From the NCBI GenBank assembly GCA_964610345.1, contig CAZSVQ010000004.1, forward strand, positions 7,570 to 31,569: DNA of 24,000 nt, given 5' to 3'. Positions within the stretch are counted from its first letter, which is position 1. Every line of letters begins with the position of its first letter. Positions 3,059 through 21,103 of this stretch are shown here, piece after piece. The DNA is from an uncultured Candidatus Saccharibacteria bacterium (lineage in GTDB: Bacteria > Patescibacteriota > Saccharimonadia > Saccharimonadales > JAGQNJ01). The notes under the pieces are model-generated. The model had not been told where the DNA came from. It saw only the letters and a program-made list of their open reading frames with translations, and did not search any database. The position numbers and the translations under genes were made by a program.

Positions 3059-5920
3059 TTAAGTTACCTTTTTTAATTCAATGAATAGTTCTGCTTTTTC
3101 AACAATGACGGGCAATTTGCTGTTACTCTTGTCGGCATTAACTATTACAGTTGTTGCTAGGGTTTCTTTGGCGATTTCTGCCTTGTATTCGATTATCGCC
3201 TTTTCTAGCTCAGTATCTTTGGTGCTAAGCACCAGCTCTATCCGGTCATCTACATTTAGCCCCGCTGTCTTACGAGTATTTTGAACTTGGCGAATTACCT
3301 CACGCATCATACCCTCACGCCTAAGCTCTGGTGTTATATCTAAATCTAATTTAAACTTTCCAGTTTTTACTGATTTTACATTCAATTCTTCTTGTAAAAT
3401 ATTATCAAAACTAAATATTTTGCCGTTATCTGGTATTGATACCGATTTTAACGGTTGACGTACTTTTATTTGATTATTTGCCCGTACACTCAAACCTTCA
3501 TTAACGTATACCCTTAAGTTTTGCATGTCAGCAACGACAAGCTCATTTACATCCCCAGCTTTTGGCCAGTCTAGTAAGTGAACTGACTCACCGCCTGTTA
3601 GTTTTATAAACAATTCTTCTGCCAAAAACGGCGTAAATGGCGCCATAACCATACTTAATTGGGTTAATACATAATGCAGGGTGCGGTAGGCATCGTTTTT
3701 GTCGGCATCGTCTCCACTCTTCCAGAATCGTCGCCTACTCCGGCGTACATACCAATTGCTAGCGTCATCAATAAACGGCAAAATTGGACGAACAGCATCA
3801 GCTAGCTGATAATTATCCATATTTTTTTGAACTTCTTTAGTCAACTGGTGTAATCGACTAACTATCCATGTATCTAGTGGATTGGTTAGCTTATTCGAGG
3901 GGTCGATTAAATCACCGTCGAACTCCCAGTTGTCGACTTCGGCGTACATTGTAAAAAAGTCATACATGTTCCAAATCATGCCTAATTTACGAGCAACATC
4001 ATTTAGATCTTTATCTTGAAGTACAAAGTTGTCTCCACTGGTTAGCGGACTACTCATCAATGTAAAGCGATAAGCATCTGCCGAGACTTTATCCATGAGC
4101 TCAACTGGATCAGTATAGTTTTTGTGTTTTTTACTCAACTTTCTGCCATCCGATGCCATTACAAAACCGGTACAGATCAAATTTTTATAAGGTGACCTAC
4201 CAAACAAAGCTACATTTACAGCCGTTAAGCTATAAAACCAGCCCCTTGTCTGATCGATCGCCTCAGTAATAAAATCAGCCGGAAAGCCCTGTTCAAATTT
4301 AGCTTTATTTTCAAACGGATAATGAAATTGAGCAAACGGCATAGACCCGCTTTCAAACCAGCAGTCCAGCACCTTGCCAATGTGACGCATCTCAACACCA
4401 TCACATTCAAAAGTTACATCCATCACCATTGGCAGGTGGTAATCGTCCAATTTTTTGCCGGTTTCTTTAGCAAACTCCTCATAACTACCAAAAACTCGCA
4501 CCACCTCTGTTCCATCAGTGCGGACACCCTTCCAAACCGGAATCGGCGTTGCCCAGTAACGGTCTCTGGATAAGTTCCAGTCTGGTGCTGATTCAACAAT
4601 ATTATGGAATCTACCTTCTTGTAGTGCTTTTGGCACCCACCTGGTTTTGTCAGTTGCGCTTAACATTTCGTGTTTTTGAGCTTGAATATCCATAAACCAA
4701 CTAGGATGAGCCCGGTACATCAGCTTTGTTCCGCAACGGTGGCAATGCGGATAATCGTGCTGAATATATTCAACCTTCAGAGCTCGACCCTCTTTTACAA
4801 GTGTTTTGGCTATCTCTTTATTCACTTCCCAAATATTTTGGCCAAGCCATCGCCCTTCGGTATAATGACCGTTTTCGTCAACTATAGACACAACTGGGAT
4901 GCCGGCTTTTTTACAAAGCTCATAATCTTCCTCACCATAAGCTGGTGCTTCATGAACAATTCCTGTGCCGTCTTCGGCAGTTACAAAATCTGCCTCTAAA
5001 ACAACATGAGCATCTGGGCCGCGGTTTTCAAATAGTGGGCTGTACTTTAGGCCAATTAGCACTTTGCCATGTATAGTTTTTAGCACTCTATACTCTAGTG
5101 GCTGGTGTTTTTCGTCTGTTAGTACTTTTTTTATTGCATCGGTTGCAATATAAAATTTCTTATCATCATACTGCACTAGCGAGTATTCAATTGCCGAGTT
5201 AACAGCAATCGCAACATTAGCTGGTAATGTCCATGGCGTAGTTGTCCAGGCTAATAAATACTCATCTGTATCTTCTATCTGAAAGTACACAAAAACACTT
5301 GGGTCGGTGTCTGTTTGATAACTATTTTCCATCGCCACTTCACTTTTACTAATTGGAGTAGCGTCTTTGGTGCAATAAATTAGGATTTTCTCGCCCTCAT
5401 AAATTTTGCCGGTTTCGTACAGCTCTTTAAACGCCCACCAGACCGACTCCATATACTCGTTATCCATGGTTTTATATGCACCTTTAAATTCTACCCAACG
5501 GCCAATGCGGTCTATTGTGTCTTCCCACTCGGTACCGGTTTTGACCATTGCCGCTCTGCAAGCATTTACATAGTCTGTGATGCTAATTTTTGTGCCGATT
5601 TCTTTTTTATTTTTAATGCCTAGTTGGTTTTCTACAAACACCTCTGCCGGCAATCCATGACAATCCCAACCCCACACACGTTCCACGCGCTTACCTTGCA
5701 TTGTTTGATAACGCGCAACTGTATCTTTGATTGTAGATACCAACAAATGACCGTGATGTGGTGTGCCAGTCAAAAATGGAGGGCCATCATAAAATACAAA
5801 GTTATTGTTTTTTGGCCGATTTGCAACTGATTTTTCAAATGTCTTGTTTTTTTGCCACTGCTTAATTAAATCTATCTCGTATTCAATTGCTCGTCTTCGC
5901 GTCCCTGATTTAAACTTCAT
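3059..5920 (-). CDS. ileS: isoleucyl-tRNA synthetase (type 2, eukaryote-like architecture)
   Basis: The protein has YDGPPFLTGTPHHGHLL (HIGH region), a WDCHGLP editing-domain context, the KLSKKHKN (KMSKS) motif and no C-terminal Cys cluster. The track start is 5932 (MEIKMKF). I prefer the ATG at 5920 because GGAG lies 6 nt upstream and this ATG overlaps the upstream TGA as ATGA. Confidence 0.95.
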   Translation of the reverse strand: MKFKSGTRRRAIEYEIDLIKQWQKNKTFEKSVANRPKNNNFVFYDGPPFLTGTPHHGHLLVSTIKDTVARYQTMQGKRVERVWGWDCHGLPAEVFVENQLGIKNKKEIGTKISITDYVNACRAAMVKTGTEWEDTIDRIGRWVEFKGAYKTMDNEYMESVWWAFKELYETGKIYEGEKILIYCTKDATPISKSEVAMENSYQTDTDPSVFVYFQIEDTDEYLLAWTTTPWTLPANVAIAVNSAIEYSLVQYDDKKFYIATDAIKKVLTDEKHQPLEYRVLKTIHGKVLIGLKYSPLFENRGPDAHVVLEADFVTAEDGTGIVHEAPAYGEEDYELCKKAGIPVVSIVDENGHYTEGRWLGQNIWEVNKEIAKTLVKEGRALKVEYIQHDYPHCHRCGTKLMYRAHPSWFMDIQAQKHEMLSATDKTRWVPKALQEGRFHNIVESAPDWNLSRDRYWATPIPVWKGVRTDGTEVVRVFGSYEEFAKETGKKLDDYHLPMVMDVTFECDGVEMRHIGKVLDCWFESGSMPFAQFHYPFENKAKFEQGFPADFITEAIDQTRGWFYSLTAVNVALFGRSPYKNLICTGFVMASDGRKLSKKHKNYTDPVELMDKVSADAYRFTLMSSPLTSGDNFVLQDKDLNDVARKLGMIWNMYDFFTMYAEVDNWEFDGDLIDPSNKLTNPLDTWIVSRLHQLTKEVQKNMDNYQLADAVRPILPFIDDASNWYVRRSRRRFWKSGDDADKNDAYRTLHYVLTQLSMVMAPFTPFLAEELFIKLTGGESVHLLDWPKAGDVNELVVADMQNLRVYVNEGLSVRANNQIKVRQPLKSVSIPDNGKIFSFDNILQEELNVKSVKTGKFKLDLDITPELRREGMMREVIRQVQNTRKTAGLNVDDRIELVLSTKDTELEKAIIEYKAEIAKETLATTVIVNADKSNSKLPVIVEKAELFIELKKVT

Positions 5921-6534
5921 TTTGATCTCCATGTTGAATCTTTTATGTCTTTTAATCTCTTTCCGTTATAGCTCCAGTAAGCCGCACCCTGATATGCTCC
6001 ACTTGAATTAAGTTGTCCTTTATCCTCATATACTTTATAAGTCAAAGGAGATAATTTCCAATTTTGACCCCCATATTCAACTTCTCGATCACCCGATACT
6101 TTAGCTACTATACTTTTATCGGAGATTAATTCAATTATGTCACCATCTTTCAGACCTATTTTATAAAAACTAAACAAGGCACCTTGTTTTCTGGTTTGAG
6201 TTATCTTGTCGAACTCATTTTCTTTATTAATTCTTTCCGGAAAAATTACTTTACCTTCAAAAGATATTAATAATTGTCTGGCTAGATCTTGATCTAGAGC
6301 AAACAATTCACTACTCCCGACTTGATGTTTATTAAAAATTTCATGTATCAGATCTTCTTTGTCGTCATAATCATTCAACTCAATTGCAAAAAATCTTTTT
6401 AAGCCAGCGACATTATAATATCCGTTAGACTCAAGAAATCGCATTCGATCTTGATAGTTTCCAGAGCCTGTTTTGCCAATTTTAATTAAGCCCGAAACAG
6501 CCGTTGTCATAATATAAACTATTCCTTTTGCCAT
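5917..6534 (-). CDS. T5orf172 / GIY-YIG-superfamily domain protein with an uncharacterised C-terminal domain
   Basis: The track ORF runs to 6621, but the ATG at 6534 has AAGGAG 10 nt upstream and begins MAKGIVYIMTTAVSGLIKIGKTGSGNYQDRMRFL. That matches the G-I-(V)-Y ... KIGKT ... R pattern of T5orf172/GIY-YIG N-terminal domains. The C-terminal ~70 aa (FSFYKIGLKDGDIIELI...WKLSPLT...YWSYNGKRL) are an unassigned small domain. I counted 197 G+C in 594 nt (33 percent) for 5941-6534. Confidence 0.8.
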   Translation of the reverse strand: MAKGIVYIMTTAVSGLIKIGKTGSGNYQDRMRFLESNGYYNVAGLKRFFAIELNDYDDKEDLIHEIFNKHQVGSSELFALDQDLARQLLISFEGKVIFPERINKENEFDKITQTRKQGALFSFYKIGLKDGDIIELISDKSIVAKVSGDREVEYGGQNWKLSPLTYKVYEDKGQLNSSGAYQGAAYWSYNGKRLKDIKDSTWRSK

Positions 6535-6564
6535 ATTAAAAGCACTCCTTTTACAACTTAAATT

Positions 6565-6780
6565 AAAAACACTTCTCTTAGATATCGGAATCCTCTTGTA
6601 TTTTAACGAGGACGGTACCATCCGATTTCTAAAAGAAGCGTTCTGTGTGATTCTTTTAGCACTTATTTACAAGCTATTACGGGCTTACCCGGCAAGGTCT
6701 ACTAATCTTACTAGGATGTTCTTCTTGCTGCTTCACGGTTGATAGCCGTTAATTTGCTGTTTTAAGCAAAACGCATTTAC
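6565..6780 (-). promoter_or_regulatory. T-box riboswitch leader with Ile (AUC) specifier and ultrashort Stem I
   Basis: Minus strand 6626-6584 reads AUCGGA|UGGUACC|GUCCUC-12 nt-GAGGAU|UCCGAU, which gives helix A1, a 7-nt bulge and helix A2. It matches AGGGUGGNACCGCG at 10 of 13 positions. Stem III is CUAAAAGAA-13 nt-UUCUUUUAG (6659-6629). The specifier hairpin is ACGG-CUAUCAA-CCGU (6749-6735) with AUC+A in the loop. There is also an F-box-like CCGUAA (6682-6677), and ileS lies downstream. Confidence 0.8.
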
Positions 6781-6786
6781 GCTTTT

Positions 6787-6816
6787 ATAATAACATATAC
6801 AGAGGTGGTTGAGCAA
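6787..6816 (-). promoter_or_regulatory. candidate promoter of the T-box leader (TTGCTC, 18 nt, extended -10 TGtTATTAT)
   Basis: On the minus strand, TTGCTC is at 6816-6811 and TGTTATTAT is at 6795-6787. The predicted start near G6780 is just upstream of the leader structures. Confidence 0.45.
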
Positions 6817-7083
6817 TTATAATTTATCTACATAAGCAGAAACGTCGTTGATCAAGGGTAAAGGCCTGCCAGACCATGCCCGCAAAAATTGCCCATCGTC
6901 AGATACAGCCACAAATGTTGGGTGATCCATCACCCCATAAATTTGAGCTTTGCTTATGCCCTCTGGCGAATCAATGTTTATTATTTCTATCTTCTTAGCA
7001 GTTCTATGCTCAAATTCCCGCACAAATTCCTCTGCTCCACGTGCAAATTCCGAATCTGGCCTATAAAACATTATCACTTTCAT
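6817..7083 (-). CDS. small thioredoxin/glutaredoxin-fold-like protein without any cysteine
   Basis: This 88-aa protein has the pattern KVIMFY (beta1), then SEFA where a CxxC would sit, then IEIINID, then HPTFV (cis-Pro position), then GQFLRAW. That layout resembles an NrdH/Grx-like fold, but the sequence contains no Cys. The fold call comes from pattern recognition only. Confidence 0.65.
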   Translation of the reverse strand: MKVIMFYRPDSEFARGAEEFVREFEHRTAKKIEIINIDSPEGISKAQIYGVMDHPTFVAVSDDGQFLRAWSGRPLPLINDVSAYVDKL

Positions 7084-7145: not shown

Positions 7146-9887
7146 TTAACTACAGCCAGTAGTGGATCCACAAGATGTACAAACATAACAACTGCCAGAA
7201 CGTTGAGTTTGGTTGCCACAGTTAAAGCACAGTGGCGCGTTATCGTCTTTAGAAGCCGACTTGCTGGCTGGAGCAGTCTCTGTTTTTGGCTCAAGCTTTT
7301 GCTGGTGGCGAACGCTCTCCGTAACCGACTCCTCGATCAACGTCGTTTGTGCCTCTGGCATATCAATAGATGCTAATCCAAGTTCCAGACGGTCATCAAA
7401 CGACAAATAATCTAGGGCCAATCTACGAACAATGTAGTCAGTTATCGACGTTGCGGTACGGATATCTGAATCATCGGTAATCCCTGCTGGCGCAAAGGTA
7501 GTTCCACGCAATGTTTTAACATAGCTTTTTAGCGGCACACCGTATTGCAAACCGTGGCTAACGCTAATCGCAAACGAATCCATCAATCCGGCCAAAGTAG
7601 AGCCTTGCTTTGATACGTTGATAAACAGCTCGCCTGGAGCGCCATCTTCGTATTCGCTAACCGTAAAGTATCCTTTTAAGTCAGAAATCCCAAAACGATA
7701 GGTCTTGCTATTACGAACGCGTGGTAACTTGCGCCTAACCGCACCTTTAACAATAATCTTATCTTCAATGGTGGCTGTAGTATTAGGTTCTTCTTTTTTA
7801 TCACCCTCTTTCTTGGCCATAGATAGTGGCTGAGCAACCTTACAATTATCGCGGTAGATTGCCACAGCCTTTAAGCCCAACTTCCAAGATTCAATATGTA
7901 GTTGCTCAACATCCTCTACACTAACTTCTTCTGGCATATTAACGGTTTTGCTAATTGCTCCAGATATAAATGGTTGCACAGCACCCATCATCTTTACGTG
8001 GCCCATGTAGTGGATAGAATTATCACCCATTGAGCAAGCAAAGACTGGTAGATGCTCTTTTTTAAGTTGTGGTGCACCGATAATAGTCTTTTCGGTATCG
8101 ATATAATTAACGATATCATCCACCTGACTCTTATTGTAGCCCAAGACTTTAAGCGCCCGTGGTACTGTTTGGTTAACAATATGCATGGTACCGCCACCAA
8201 CTAGCTTTTTCACTTTAACTAAACCTAAGTCAGGTTCAATACCGGTAGTATCACAATCCATCATCAAGCCGATTGTACCGGTTGGCGCAAGTACGCTAGC
8301 TTGTGAATTTCGCACACCAAACATAGTTCCAAGCTCAACCGCATCATCCCAAGACTCGGCTGCTGCACTCAGTAATTCCTCTGATACAAGGCTGGCATCA
8401 ATATTAGAAACTTCTTCGCGGTGCATTTTAAGCACATTTAGCATACCCTCTCGGTCTTTATGGAAACCACTGAAAGGACCAACTCGGCGAGCAATTCTTG
8501 CACTGGTAGCGTAAGCATGGCCAGTTAATAACGCTGTAATTGCGCCAGCTTGTGCCCGGCCTTCAGTAGAGTCGTATGGCAAACCTTGGGCCATTAATAG
8601 TGCCCCAAGGTTAGCATAGCCTATACCTAGCTCTCGGTAAGCACGAGCATTCTTGCCAATACTCTCGGTTGGATATTCAGAATAACCAACTAATATTTCT
8701 TGCGAGGTAAAAATAACTTCTACGGTGTGTTTGTAAGCAGGAATATCAAAACTGCCATCGTCTTTAAGATATTTAAGTAAGTTAATAGATGCTAAGTTAC
8801 AGGCTGAATTGTCTAGGTGCATATATTCACTGCATGGGTTAGAAGCATTTATGCGCCCAGCATTCGGCGCGGTGTGCCATTTATTGATTGTTGTATCAAA
8901 TTGCATACCCGGATCTGCACATTCCCACGCTGCATCAGCAAATTGGCGGAACAGCTTGCGGGCTTTAATAGTTTTAACTGATTCTCCAGTCTTAACTGCC
9001 TTTAAATCCCAATCGGCATCGTCTACTACGGCTTGCATAAATTCATCTGTTACGCGCATAGAATTATTAGCATTTTGATATTGAACCGAAAACGAATCTT
9101 TGCCATCAAGACTCATATCAAACCCCGCTTCTTGCAATGCCCGAGCTTTACGCTCCTCGATAGCTTTACACCAAATAAACTCCTCGATATCTGGGTGATC
9201 AGCGTTTAAAATAACCATTTTTGCGGCTCGGCGGGTCTTGCCGCCACTTTTAATAGCCCCAGCTGATGCATCAGCTCCACGCATAAAGCTTAGTGGCCCA
9301 GATGCCGTACCAGCACTTTTGCCTAATTTTTCAACTGATGAGCGAATTGGGCTCATGTTAATACCAGAACCAGAACCACCTTTAAATATCATGCCTTCTT
9401 CTTTGTACCAGTTTAATATTGCTGGCATGGTATCTTCTATTCCCAAGATAAAACAAGCGCTAGCCTGTTGCGAGCGTGAAGGCGCACCGATATTAAACCA
9501 AACCGGTGAGTTAAAAGCTGCTCTTTGTGTAGCGAGGATATATTTAAGTTCTTGCTTAAAATCTTCTGCTTCATCTTTGGTCTCAAAATAATCTTCTTGT
9601 AAACCTTGCCTTGTAATAGTGTCTGCAACGCGGTTAATCAGGTCTCTGAGTGATGTCTCTCGCTCCTCTGTACCTGGTGTACCTGTAAAATACTTTTGAG
9701 CTACGATATTTATAGCGTTTAGCGACCAACCTTCAGGAAAGTCAACATCGCGTTGCTCGAAGACGTATTCGTTCGTCATTGGATTTTTAATAATTGAGTC
9801 TCTTTTGACCCATTTAAGTTGGTCGTAAGCTTTTTGACCGGGCTTCGTAAAGAAGCGACCAACCCCTAGCGTAGTAGTTTGTCCCAT
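7146..9887 (-). CDS. nrdJ: ribonucleoside-diphosphate/triphosphate reductase, class II (adenosylcobalamin-dependent)
   Basis: This 913-aa protein has an N-terminus (FTKPGQKAYDQLKWVKRDS...NAINIVAQKYF) and core motifs (NPCSEY, SACNLASINL, GIGYANLG) typical of monomeric class II RNR. Its C-terminal tail is Cys-rich (CFNCGNQ...CYVCTSCGSTTGCS). A GAGGG SD lies 6 nt upstream. Confidence 0.92.
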   Translation of the reverse strand: MGQTTTLGVGRFFTKPGQKAYDQLKWVKRDSIIKNPMTNEYVFEQRDVDFPEGWSLNAINIVAQKYFTGTPGTEERETSLRDLINRVADTITRQGLQEDYFETKDEAEDFKQELKYILATQRAAFNSPVWFNIGAPSRSQQASACFILGIEDTMPAILNWYKEEGMIFKGGSGSGINMSPIRSSVEKLGKSAGTASGPLSFMRGADASAGAIKSGGKTRRAAKMVILNADHPDIEEFIWCKAIEERKARALQEAGFDMSLDGKDSFSVQYQNANNSMRVTDEFMQAVVDDADWDLKAVKTGESVKTIKARKLFRQFADAAWECADPGMQFDTTINKWHTAPNAGRINASNPCSEYMHLDNSACNLASINLLKYLKDDGSFDIPAYKHTVEVIFTSQEILVGYSEYPTESIGKNARAYRELGIGYANLGALLMAQGLPYDSTEGRAQAGAITALLTGHAYATSARIARRVGPFSGFHKDREGMLNVLKMHREEVSNIDASLVSEELLSAAAESWDDAVELGTMFGVRNSQASVLAPTGTIGLMMDCDTTGIEPDLGLVKVKKLVGGGTMHIVNQTVPRALKVLGYNKSQVDDIVNYIDTEKTIIGAPQLKKEHLPVFACSMGDNSIHYMGHVKMMGAVQPFISGAISKTVNMPEEVSVEDVEQLHIESWKLGLKAVAIYRDNCKVAQPLSMAKKEGDKKEEPNTTATIEDKIIVKGAVRRKLPRVRNSKTYRFGISDLKGYFTVSEYEDGAPGELFINVSKQGSTLAGLMDSFAISVSHGLQYGVPLKSYVKTLRGTTFAPAGITDDSDIRTATSITDYIVRRLALDYLSFDDRLELGLASIDMPEAQTTLIEESVTESVRHQQKLEPKTETAPASKSASKDDNAPLCFNCGNQTQRSGSCYVCTSCGSTTGCS

Positions 9888-19612: not shown

Positions 19613-21103
19613 TTAATTCAGCAAACTCCAGATGAAAGCGATTATTCCAAACGATACTAGCATTATAATACCAGCCGTAACGCCTTGCTGTGCTGCTCTC
19701 TTTAACTCCTTTTGATTATTTAAAGCCTTACGCTGTTGCATGCTAAGATTTTGTATATTTTTTCCCTTACCTGATTCTCTCTCGGTGTTTACTTTTTGAT
19801 TTGTTTGCAATATATCATTTTTAACTAAAATTTTGCTACTGTCATCTAATTGATCCGAATATCCGTCGTCGTAAAAAGGCTCTTCTTTAACCTCGTGTTT
19901 GCGTTCAATATATCGCTCAAATGCAAAAGAATTATTCGTCTTTTCTGATGCAATATTAGATTTATCAATATTAGCAATCAATGTTTCACCGATTTTTTGT
20001 GACCGTAAGATAGTTTGACTCTGATTTATTTCTGGCTTAGTTCTGGCTTGATATGTGTTTTTTGATTCACTTACCTCTGAACCTACGATTTCTGACTCTT
20101 TATATAAATTGTTACTTCTATCAACTAAATCTTTAACTATCGTGTCTGGCTTAGTATTAACATGTGTGGGATTTGCTAATTCCAGCGTATTCAGAGGCTC
20201 CTGATGGTTTATTTTTCGTTTTTTACGTAATTCTAGTGCTTGTTTTTTGCTAATAGCCCTGAGGCGATCTATACCCCTTTTAATTGCATATTGTTCTGTC
20301 TCTATACTTCTGTCTCTTTTGTCGGATGCTTCAAATCGATTTTTTAAATCTTCATACCGTTGTTGGTTTAATCTTTCGGTCGCAATATCACCAAACTTAG
20401 TTGCGCCACTTGAATCATTTTGTGTTTGTAAAATACGATTTTCCGTATGGCTTGCATTAATGGCATAAACTTCAGATTCAAGATCGTCTGTTTTAGTAGG
20501 TATTTCTACCTTGTCATTATTATCCTCACCTACCAGACCCGGTATTTTAGTGCTGTGCTCGCGATTAATAGCTTGCCTCGCTTCTTCTATTGCAATATTG
20601 GCTTCTTGATCAATATCATTTATTGATTCTGCTTCTAGCACCCCGTCATTAGTTAGCTCAATTTCAATTTCTTTACTGCTATTTTCAGTTATAAGCAAAT
20701 TATTTACGTTTTCTATACTATTTTGCGTTAGTGGTATATTAAGCATATTTGGGTCATTTAGAACTTTTGTTGCGACAGTGTTGTTATCAGACTCTTCAGG
20801 TGCAACCTCAACACTATTTAATATCGGTAAGCGTAAATCGGGTTCGCTTTTAGCTTCAGTGATTTCTGTAATTTCGTCTTTTTCTACGCCGGTTGCTTTA
20901 CTAAAAAATGCACTGAATGACTCCAGAAAGCCTTTTTGCTCATCTTTGGGCTGATCTTCTGCTTTATTAAATAGTCTTTTCCATAATTGTGAAACTGGAT
21001 TCTTTTTTTTCTTCTTAGAAGAATCTACTTCATCGCCATCAATATCTTGGTCTGATAAATCATATTCTGTGCCGCTTGTGTAAAATGGAGATTTTTCTTG
21101 CAT
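19613..21103 (-). CDS. acidic, low-complexity, C-terminally membrane-anchored protein of unknown function
   Basis: This 496-aa protein has a D/E/K/N/S-rich body and a central charged helical stretch (ERLNQQRYEDLKNRFEASDKRDR...KKQALELRKKRK). A single hydrophobic segment sits at the extreme C-terminus (GVTAGIIMLVSFGIIAFIWSLLN). An AAAGGA SD lies 8 nt upstream. Confidence 0.7.
   Translation of the reverse strand: MQEKSPFYTSGTEYDLSDQDIDGDEVDSSKKKKKNPVSQLWKRLFNKAEDQPKDEQKGFLESFSAFFSKATGVEKDEITEITEAKSEPDLRLPILNSVEVAPEESDNNTVATKVLNDPNMLNIPLTQNSIENVNNLLITENSSKEIEIELTNDGVLEAESINDIDQEANIAIEEARQAINREHSTKIPGLVGEDNNDKVEIPTKTDDLESEVYAINASHTENRILQTQNDSSGATKFGDIATERLNQQRYEDLKNRFEASDKRDRSIETEQYAIKRGIDRLRAISKKQALELRKKRKINHQEPLNTLELANPTHVNTKPDTIVKDLVDRSNNLYKESEIVGSEVSESKNTYQARTKPEINQSQTILRSQKIGETLIANIDKSNIASEKTNNSFAFERYIERKHEVKEEPFYDDGYSDQLDDSSKILVKNDILQTNQKVNTERESGKGKNIQNLSMQQRKALNNQKELKRAAQQGVTAGIIMLVSFGIIAFIWSLLN

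Follow-up and report, generated by a model that had tools for sequence, protein, structure and literature searches.

The window analyzed here, a stretch of 24,000 nucleotides from an uncultured Candidatus Saccharibacteria bacterium (contig CAZSVQ010000004.1), carries a 205-amino-acid open reading frame (ORF) between an isoleucine (Ile) T-box leader and ileS, the gene of isoleucyl-tRNA synthetase (IleRS). With a probability of roughly two in three, we consider this ORF to be an accessory, restriction- or defence-type nuclease gene that was horizontally acquired by recombination into a recurrent cargo slot, that is transcribed only by read-through of the T-box and to which ileS is translationally coupled. 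The original prediction, made from the letters of the window, had described the ORF as the first gene after the leader, with a T5orf172-type N-terminus, its own Shine-Dalgarno (SD) sequence and a stop codon that overlaps the better-supported ileS start. These features are all borne out by the present analysis.

The ORF (5917-6534, minus strand) runs from an ATG at 6534-6532 to a TGA at 5919-5917. A longer, 234-amino-acid reading from the ATG at 6621 is spurious, because this codon lies inside the T-box motif GGAUGGUACC and homologues begin with MAKGI. The SD sequence AAGGAG (6545-6550, minus strand) is separated from the ATG by 10 nt and is kept in two related loci that carry the same gene, L009 and L024. 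At the other end, the TGA overlaps the ileS ATG (5920-5918) in a 4-nt ATGA (5917-5920, minus strand), and the ileS SD sequence GGAG (5927-5930, minus strand; 6 nt upstream of the ATG) is embedded in the last codons of the inserted ORF. The junction GGAGATCAAAATG of the window recurs in L009 and in L074-78. The ileS start at 5920 is backed by a conserved N-terminus, MKFKSGTRRRA, in about 25 related loci and by the nearest homologue of 953 amino acids. Identical protein, leader and junction are found in five independent assemblies, so the locus is not an assembly artefact. The modest difference in composition that had been noted earlier is confirmed, in agreement with the earlier counts: the G+C content is 33.2% for the ORF (23% at third codon positions), 40.9% for ileS (37% at third codon positions) and 39.9% for the window, and the 618-nt stretch with the lowest G+C content of the whole window falls within the inserted ORF. 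Compared with the copies in L009 and L024 (199 codons), the ratio of nonsynonymous to synonymous substitution rates (dN/dS) is 0.06-0.07.

The encoded protein comprises two domains. Residues 1-100 (6235-6534, minus strand) form a T5orf172 domain of the GIY-YIG superfamily. Pfam PF10544 recognizes it with a score of 27.6 bits (cut-off 20), aligning residues 4-87 to positions 1-95 of its 101-position profile; relatives score 29-52 bits with this profile. The MUG113 profile scores slightly below its cut-off (21.5 versus 22.3 bits), and PHROG 18411, annotated as 'homing endonuclease', matches the N-terminal half with an E-value of 3e-9. Residues G4, Y7, K18-I19-G20, R30, E60, E76 and F78 are invariant or at least 90% conserved in an alignment of 36 sequences down to 33% identity (alignment A3), in which E76, located in an E-x-F motif, may represent the catalytic-type glutamate. 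A structure prediction from a shallow alignment (72-93% identity) reached a predicted local distance difference test (pLDDT) score of 57 and was set aside in favour of one from a diverse alignment extending to 33% identity. The resulting AF2 model has a pLDDT of 87 (above 90 in the N-terminal domain) and consists of two domains, residues 1-100 and 125-200. In Foldseek searches, the N-terminal domain superimposes on viral T5orf172 models with a root-mean-square deviation of 1.7-3.3 A over 87-108 residues (E-values down to 1e-5), and matches to GIY-YIG folds in the PDB (Slx1, BH0048, UPF0213) are weak (probability 0.3-0.5). At least one T5orf172 protein of a phage has been shown to act as a nuclease (PMC10448857).

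The C-terminal module, which the original prediction had left unassigned, can now be given a name. Residues 125-200 (5935-6162, minus strand) resemble the C-terminal DNA-binding domain of the methyltransferase CcrM, the best PDB match of the model by Foldseek (6pbd; E-value 8e-3, probability 1.0), and the profile of this domain aligns with that of the CcrM C-terminal domain over 54 columns in hhalign (probability 79%, E-value 1.6e-5). The CcrM C-terminus itself is a Pfam RAMA domain (64.5 bits) and binds the DNA backbone non-specifically (PMC6787082). As the similarity consists of fold and profile resemblance and comes without a curated match, we name the domain 'RAMA-like' and not a certified RAMA. 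Fusions of RAMA to T5orf172 and other nuclease domains have been described, mostly in restriction enzymes of adenine-methylating restriction-modification (R-M) systems (Iyer, Zhang and Aravind 2016, PMC4738411). As a whole, the protein falls into the PDC-S57 family of PADLOC: profile PDLC05041 matches over the full length (E-value 7e-35; residues 2-201, profile positions 4-206 of 212), PDLC05040 matches the N-terminal half (1e-55) and PDLC05043 matches with 9e-21. The RAMA-like module also occurs in four to five tandem copies in three larger proteins, P0205 (499 amino acids), P0244 (983 amino acids) and P0254 (546 amino acids), two of which have no Pfam match at all. It is thus an independent, repeatable module.

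The relatives of the protein point to R-M and defence contexts. About 2000 homologues were found, the best 120 of which are 71-93% identical, and those with a name are mostly Saccharimonadales. At the 50% cluster level there are 1043 matches, many with the N-terminal domain only and some with tandem repeats of the C-terminal domain. In three independent lineages a family member is the fourth gene of an hsdM-hsdS-hsdR type I R-M operon, 5-28 nt past hsdR (200-amino-acid proteins encoded at 6001-6603 of L013, 5001-5603 of L068 and L069, and 5001-5603 of L072), which suggests an accessory subunit or a back-up nuclease of type I systems. The association with N6-adenine R-M systems thus holds for these hsdMSR-linked relatives and not for the copy in the window. 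One further copy lies upstream of a gene whose product has an HsdR-type N-terminus (one lineage, by eye), and another lies in a tRNA-adjacent variable region together with a Type ISP enzyme, a resolvase and a nuclease. In several lineages the neighbours, read from translations by eye, are Fic-, Abi-like, DUF3800-like and GIY-YIG-like-helicase proteins. No flanking DNA is common to family copies in different contexts, and in most other genomes the G+C content of the gene matches that of its host. A scan of IMG/VR gave matches confined to the N-terminal ~115 residues. Among eight loci from a scan of reference genomes with the window protein, ileS was never nearby, a number too low for statistics. 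Taken together, the RAMA-like domain and the R-M operon and defence contexts argue for a restriction- or defence-type nuclease rather than a classical free-standing homing endonuclease.

Some of these contexts deserve a separate description. In L015-L018 (~5400-6000), identical copies of the family member P0094 directly follow a tRNA gene; the upstream content varies between samples and the downstream side is conserved, which places P0094 at the edge of a variable island. In L001 (5881-9828) and, on the opposite strand, L004 (6864-9371), family members have large neighbours of 1315 and 835 amino acids, respectively. By eye, these start with a GIY-YIG/T5orf172-like region (YVYS...LKIG/LKVGYT) that is followed by a helicase-like region (WNAKMRFGKT), and look like a second, larger nuclease-helicase defence gene beside the small one.

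The position of the gene is as informative as its domains. Scanning metagenome contigs with a 20-nt pattern of stem I of the leader yielded 37 loci, in which the specifier is invariant by construction because the pattern includes it. Five pattern matches with ample downstream sequence and no ileS (L042, L049, L051, L058 and L062) were left out of the count. A gene occupies the position between leader and ileS in nine of the approximately 24 scanned loci with a placeable ileS, and in 13 of 31 distinct leaders. The ileS start lies 10-40 nt past the terminator U-run in about 15 scanned loci and 400-610 nt past it in the nine others, each of which holds one promoterless gene: GNATs, two GDSL/SGNH hydrolases, a cupin, and a 178-188-amino-acid protein without a Pfam match. 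Together with the close relative L019, described below, the loci with non-nuclease cargo between U-run and ileS are L028, L031, L033, L034, L036, L046, L047, L048 and L053. The nuclease gene was found in none of the loci of the stem I pattern scan and is confined to the clade of the window. Most cargo genes are fused to ileS: among the 12 occupied loci that were measured, six (the window included) have a 4-nt ATGA overlap, three an 11-nt overlap, one abutting genes and two a short spacer. When loci are clustered by the N-terminus of IleRS, the occupied ones are scattered and their nearest neighbour is usually an empty locus, which argues for repeated gain or loss. The slot GNATs belong to at least four unrelated or barely related families (that of L019 and at least three further ones); in view of this and of the scattering of occupied among empty loci, the idea that they are one ancient, conserved partner of ileS was rejected. 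The arrangement that the original prediction had called unusual is not a one-off, since around one third of the scanned loci hold an accessory gene there. Most of these genes do not encode nucleases, so that an insertion at this site can be explained without one. The gene type was already known; the slot appears to be undescribed. We also observe, without an explanation, an excess of small acyl-transferases and hydrolases beside this synthetase, which is an antibiotic target.

Close relatives show the slot in different states. In L019-21, with an IleRS 97% identical to that of the window, it holds a 178-amino-acid GNAT acetyltransferase that overlaps ileS by 11 nt. In L022/23 (84%) it is empty and ileS starts 12 nt after the U-run. 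The T5orf172 gene is present in L024/25 (83%), with a 111-nt spacer before ileS, and in L009-12 (~80-83%), with an 11-nt overlap. There is thus a presence/absence polymorphism at one exact site with collinear flanks (T5orf172 in the window, GNAT in L019, nothing in L022). The window and L019, which belong to the same species, are collinear in blastn with flanks of 97.6% and 95.4% identity and a single swapped segment, in which the 3' half of the leader and the nuclease gene (window 5924-6603, minus strand) stand against the 3' half of the leader and the GNAT gene of L019 (3424-3997). According to the blastn breakpoints (6604 and 5923) and sliding identity, this segment reaches from the loop of stem III in the leader to the ATG of ileS. 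Beyond it, the first 450 nt of ileS (5471-5920, minus strand) are 89-92% identical to L019 in 150-nt sliding windows, compared to 94-100% for most of the remaining flanks, and possibly represent a co-transferred tract. Synonymous divergence (dS) between the window and L019 is 0.33 for ileS versus 0.06-0.08 for the upstream genes. Against L009 and L024, dS is around 0.5 for the nuclease gene and 1.1 to over 2 for the flanking genes; together with the low dN/dS, this indicates that the gene is intact, under purifying selection and younger in the lineage than the divergence of its hosts.

Two further observations concern the same loci. A second tract of ileS, 4271-4720 (codons ~401-550), is 79-88% identical to the otherwise 94-100% identical L019, which suggests that ileS itself may be a mosaic of recombination tracts, independent of the cassette. 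The 111-nt spacer of L024 (3890-4000) contains a 9-bp hairpin (AACCGATGC...GCATCGGTT), which has a T-run behind it on the opposite strand only; after the hairpin come AAGGAGG and the ileS ATG. Possibly, this spacer is an older state that preceded the spacer deletion and gene fusion seen in the window and L009.

Upstream of the ORF, the 280-nt region that separates it from an 88-amino-acid gene contains the Ile T-box leader (6565-6768, minus strand), which is composed of an upstream hairpin, an ultrashort stem I, a stem II region, stem III, the T-box/antiterminator domain, a terminator and a U-run. It is identified by a permissive match to Rfam RF00230 and by covariation of its 3' domain. In a search of 451 nt, the match (6583-6763) has an E-value of 2e-7 and scores 39.5 bits, where the gathering score is 93, and at the gathering threshold no T-box is reported in the window. 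The low score arises because a 7-nt loop replaces 76 model positions of distal stem I. Stem I is the hairpin ACGG-CUAUCAA-CCGU, with the specifier AUC (6743-6741) in its 7-nt terminal loop, followed by the purine A (AUC-A, 6743-6740); this specifier matches the downstream ileS and is also found in L009, L019, L022 and L024, which were retrieved by protein and not by leader pattern. The bulge UGGUACC (6614-6620, minus strand), which pairs with the NCCA 3' end of the tRNA, matches the Rfam consensus GGUGGUACCG and is unchanged in all 27 aligned leaders. Compensatory changes were already present in an alignment of five leaders (A1). For a broader comparison 31 distinct related leaders were used, 27 of which make up the alignment of the 3' domain (A5). 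In the helices of this domain, 93.8% of the cells are paired and 21 of 26 pairs have changed on both sides, compared to 33-51% paired when the partners are slid by one to three columns as a control. Helices A1 and A2 of the T-box domain are 93-99% paired, with nine of 12 pairs changed on both sides.

The intrinsic terminator (6565-6640, minus strand), supported by the minimum free energy fold and covariation, is a hairpin (6640-6570) followed by U5 (6569-6565). It contains, in this order, the 3' strand of stem III, helices A1 and A2, and a downstream strand (6583-6570). Covariation is also seen for the alternative stem III, in which 6659-6651 and 6637-6629 are 81% paired. The covarying terminator thus encloses an intact antiterminator domain, and the canonical arrangement, in which a mutually exclusive terminator uses the 3' strand of the antiterminator, was not found. 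A switch in the leader is plausible nevertheless, with a topology unlike that of a canonical T-box: the competition appears to be one between stem III and the base of the terminator (a three-strand switch) rather than between antiterminator and terminator. Control looks transcriptional, given that, whether the slot is empty or occupied, the SD sequence of the first gene always lies past the U-run and is not part of the covarying helix; a translational T-box that sequesters the SD sequence was rejected on the same grounds. A candidate promoter of the leader (6787-6816, minus strand), read from the sequence, would consist of TTGCTC (6816-6811), an 18-nt spacing and an extended -10 element, TGT-TATTAT (6795-6787), directly after the stop codon of the upstream 88-amino-acid gene. 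The consensus scan does not report it because its -35 element matches at three of six positions.

Leader, ORF and ileS are probably co-transcribed, because the ORF begins 30 nt after the terminator U-run, a terminator-like site is absent from the stretch between leader and ileS, and there are no more promoter-like matches than expected by chance (three found, 4.8 expected). As the ORF also lacks the space for its own promoter, the simplest reading would be the one that had been predicted, a single T-box-gated transcript with translational coupling. None of the findings that the original prediction had named as fatal to it was made: the T5orf172 match is present, no separate promoter and terminator set the ORF apart from ileS, and universal conservation with host-like composition is not observed.

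On these grounds, the following course of events is proposed. The ORF would be an intact accessory gene for a two-domain DNA nuclease, with T5orf172 as the catalytic and the RAMA-like module as the DNA-binding domain. The segment from the middle of the leader through the nuclease gene, possibly into the first ~450 nt of ileS, would have been replaced by homologous recombination, with homology arms provided by ileS on one side and by the conserved 5' half of the leader on the other. It would thereby have landed in a slot between the T-box terminator and the ribosome-binding site of ileS that tolerates and expresses single promoterless genes, and the cargo would then have been joined to the ileS start, which preserves translation of ileS. 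Transcription would start upstream of the leader. Uncharged tRNA-Ile would pair with the AUC specifier and the UGGUACC bulge, and its binding would favour stem III and the antiterminator over the long terminator hairpin, resulting in read-through. The nuclease would be translated from its own AAGGAG. The ileS ATG in the overlap, along with the GGAG in the preceding codons, would be used for re-initiation by ribosomes that end at the TGA, or be unmasked by them. A restriction or defence role on DNA is the most likely one for the nuclease, its RAMA-like domain providing the binding to DNA, and the connection with isoleucine sensing most likely arose from the landing place as a by-product.

Several points weigh against this proposal. 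Pfam RAMA (PF18755, cut-off 35.2 bits) does not match the window protein, distant family members score below the same gathering threshold (24.0, 19.3 and 13.4 bits), and some DNA-contact residues of CcrM are not conserved, e.g., W332 aligns with an alanine. PDC-S57 is listed in PADLOC as a candidate single-gene defence system only, and a literature search for it returned nothing. The family contexts come from a small sample, around 15 lineages out of about 2000 homologues. No methyltransferase or other R-M gene occurs in the 24-kb window, which leaves the nuclease without a candidate partner there. The allele swap is compatible with either direction, T5orf172 replacing GNAT or the reverse. Finally, co-transcription and coupling are read from sequence alone, and a promoter-like site, TTGAAT-16-TATAGT (6134-6107), lies within the ORF.

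Among the alternatives, the one that survives best, although we consider it unlikely, is a free-standing homing endonuclease, whose target would be the T-box/ileS junction of alleles without the ORF, or a site close by in ileS, and whose gene would be copied with its flanks in the repair of the cut. Phage T5orf172 genes are documented as homing-type genes that lie beside essential genes and exchange boundaries (PMC10448857), and the PHROG match of the N-terminal half carries the same label. The polymorphism at one exact intergenic site among close relatives would fit such an element, and the divergent 450-nt ileS tract with the replaced 3' half of the leader is what co-conversion would give. 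The gene is also more conserved between lineages than its flanks (dS 0.5 versus 1.1 to over 2) and low in G+C, and P0094 sits at a border of conserved and variable DNA. Yet GNAT, GDSL hydrolase, cupin and other cargo without a nuclease fills the same slot in ten other loci, so turnover of the slot does not need homing. The family ends type I R-M operons in three sampled lineages and elsewhere has defence-type neighbours, instead of lying in the gaps between conserved genes. The DNA-binding module of the family resembles RAMA, is of R-M type and is not one of the zinc fingers (CapR, DUF723, DUF4397) of phage T5orf172 homing genes. Moreover, copies in different contexts share no sequence beyond the ORF, viral matches stop after the N-terminal part, and the host-like G+C content in most other genomes implies long residence. 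Of the selfish homing insertion offered by the original prediction, the insertion itself, its non-universality and its deviant composition thus stand, while the R-M contexts, the RAMA-like domain and the non-nuclease cargo weaken the homing part.

Next comes the doubtful possibility that, in Saccharibacteria, the T-box/ileS junction is a selected, riboswitch-gated slot, in which recombining cargo is welded to the ileS start and expressed when charging of tRNA-Ile falls, with the functional link itself under selection. If so, the GNATs, GDSL hydrolases and cupin would form an inducible resistance module against antibiotics that target IleRS, and the T5orf172-RAMA nuclease would be a defence nuclease gated by translation stress, e.g., during phage takeover.

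We give still less credence to a domesticated factor for isoleucine starvation or IleRS stress, including phage takeover of translation, that selection has placed under the T-box, e.g., a nuclease or DNA-binding regulator induced as tRNA-Ile charging drops, which is akin to the second reading offered by the original prediction. Expression would have to depend on T-box read-through, slot-resident copies are under strong purifying selection, and tight coupling to ileS has evolved, given that the spacer of L024 is lost in the window and L009. The slot is filled in about one third of the scanned loci, often with small enzymes such as GNATs and GDSL hydrolases, for which detoxification of IleRS inhibitors is speculation. 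Against this, most sampled family members reside outside the slot and without a T-box, and closely related strains lack the gene or carry unrelated cargo. The cargo types have no obvious common function, nor does any feature of the protein tie it to amino-acid metabolism. Nothing tested backs a domesticated, starvation-specific function. Finally, a decaying remnant or mis-assembly without function, to which the low G+C content and the modest Pfam score could point, is effectively refuted by the intact frame with its low dN/dS over 199 codons, the 71-93% identity to the best 120 of ~2000 full-length homologues, the confident model and the recurrence of protein and junction in five independent assemblies.

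The preferred reading, an accessory restriction- or defence-type nuclease gene in a recurrent slot, can be set beside several known systems. With the T5orf172 and RAMA nucleases of PMC4738411 and PDC-S57 the protein shares the two-domain architecture, and its relatives end type I R-M operons as the paper describes for RAMA-nuclease fusions. Unlike those R-M nucleases, the window gene stands apart from an R-M partner, alone in a core region, promoterless behind a T-box and overlapping ileS. The T5orf172 homing genes of phages (ICP1, T5-like; PMC10448857), including Odn and CapR of ICP1/PLE, have the same catalytic domain family in a small free-standing gene. Similarly, the window gene lies beside an essential gene (ribonucleotide reductase, 0.6 kb upstream), is found at the margin of a recombination tract and depends on transcription by the host. 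It differs from them in residing on a bacterial chromosome, in having a RAMA-like domain instead of CapR/DUF723/DUF4397 zinc fingers, and in sharing its site with non-nuclease cargo. In the case of CcrM (PDB 6PBD; PMC6787082), whose C-terminal domain is the best structural match to the C-terminal 80 residues, the domain is attached to a methyltransferase rather than a nuclease, and several of its DNA-contact residues are not kept in the window protein. Like integration hotspots (defence islands, tRNA-adjacent islands), the slot is a fixed site with conserved flanks whose content varies among close relatives and is phylogenetically scattered. In contrast to these, it takes a single promoterless gene inside a riboswitch operon, usually fused to the start codon of an essential gene, and no integrase or repeats are present, exchange apparently being plain homologous recombination.

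The leader has its own counterparts. Ultrashort-stem-I ileS T-boxes of Actinobacteria were reportedly described by Sherwood in 2015. With the actinobacterial ileS T-boxes (PMC7583486) the window leader shares the Ile specifier AUC, a truncated stem I without a tRNA-elbow platform, a stem II region, stem III, the UGGNACC bulge and the target ileS. Those T-boxes act on translation by hiding the SD sequence, whereas the window leader has a hairpin and U-run with an unpaired SD sequence downstream. Moreover, its terminator contains the whole T-box domain rather than replacing it, and the first regulated gene is not ileS. Since the leader ends in a transcription terminator, of unusual topology, and yet has an ultrashort stem I, it bears on the view that the stem I platform is essential, as has been reported for transcriptional T-boxes (review, PMC7583486). 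Searches of the accessible literature for PDC-S57 and for T-boxes in Saccharibacteria or Patescibacteria found nothing, which is weak evidence of novelty.

If our reading is right, these reduced-genome, host-dependent bacteria have a recurrent landing site in the short stretch that links a riboswitch terminator to an essential gene for a tRNA synthetase. Single promoterless accessory genes would arrive there, be passed from lineage to lineage and end up in translational fusion with that gene. Accessory genes would here have taken over the regulation of a housekeeping operon, in a compact natural example that could help explain how new genes are expressed in genomes with few promoters. The slot is also a candidate neutral insertion site for genetic work on Saccharibacteria. 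Here, it places a putative defence nuclease under the control of tRNA charging, which, if the link is functional, would connect translation stress to immunity.

The surroundings are a core housekeeping region on the minus strand with, from high coordinates, FtsA, FtsZ, NrdR, class II ribonucleotide reductase, IleRS, L21, ParA, ParB and signal peptidase. The names FtsZ, NrdR, L21, ParA and ParB follow from synteny with annotated relatives and the other gene names from Pfam. The ileS gene (3059-5920, minus strand; 953 amino acids from the ATG at 5920) is assigned by Pfam tRNA-synt_1 (7e-124), Anticodon_1 and DUF5915 and by its homologues. Adjoining infB, a 496-amino-acid ORF (19613-21103, minus strand) has an acidic, lysine-rich N-terminus of low complexity and no Pfam match at E <= 1e-4; it was compared to a 495-amino-acid unannotated gene near the slot in L009 and is unrelated to it. 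The ribonucleotide reductase gene (7146-9887, minus strand) is followed by the 88-amino-acid gene upstream of the leader (6817-7083, minus strand), which has a weak match to MJ0307-family thioredoxins (21.6 bits). All related loci examined have this thioredoxin-fold gene between the ribonucleotide reductase gene and the T-box leader. Its stop codon is directly adjacent to the putative promoter of the leader, and its product is plausibly the reductant for ribonucleotide reductase.

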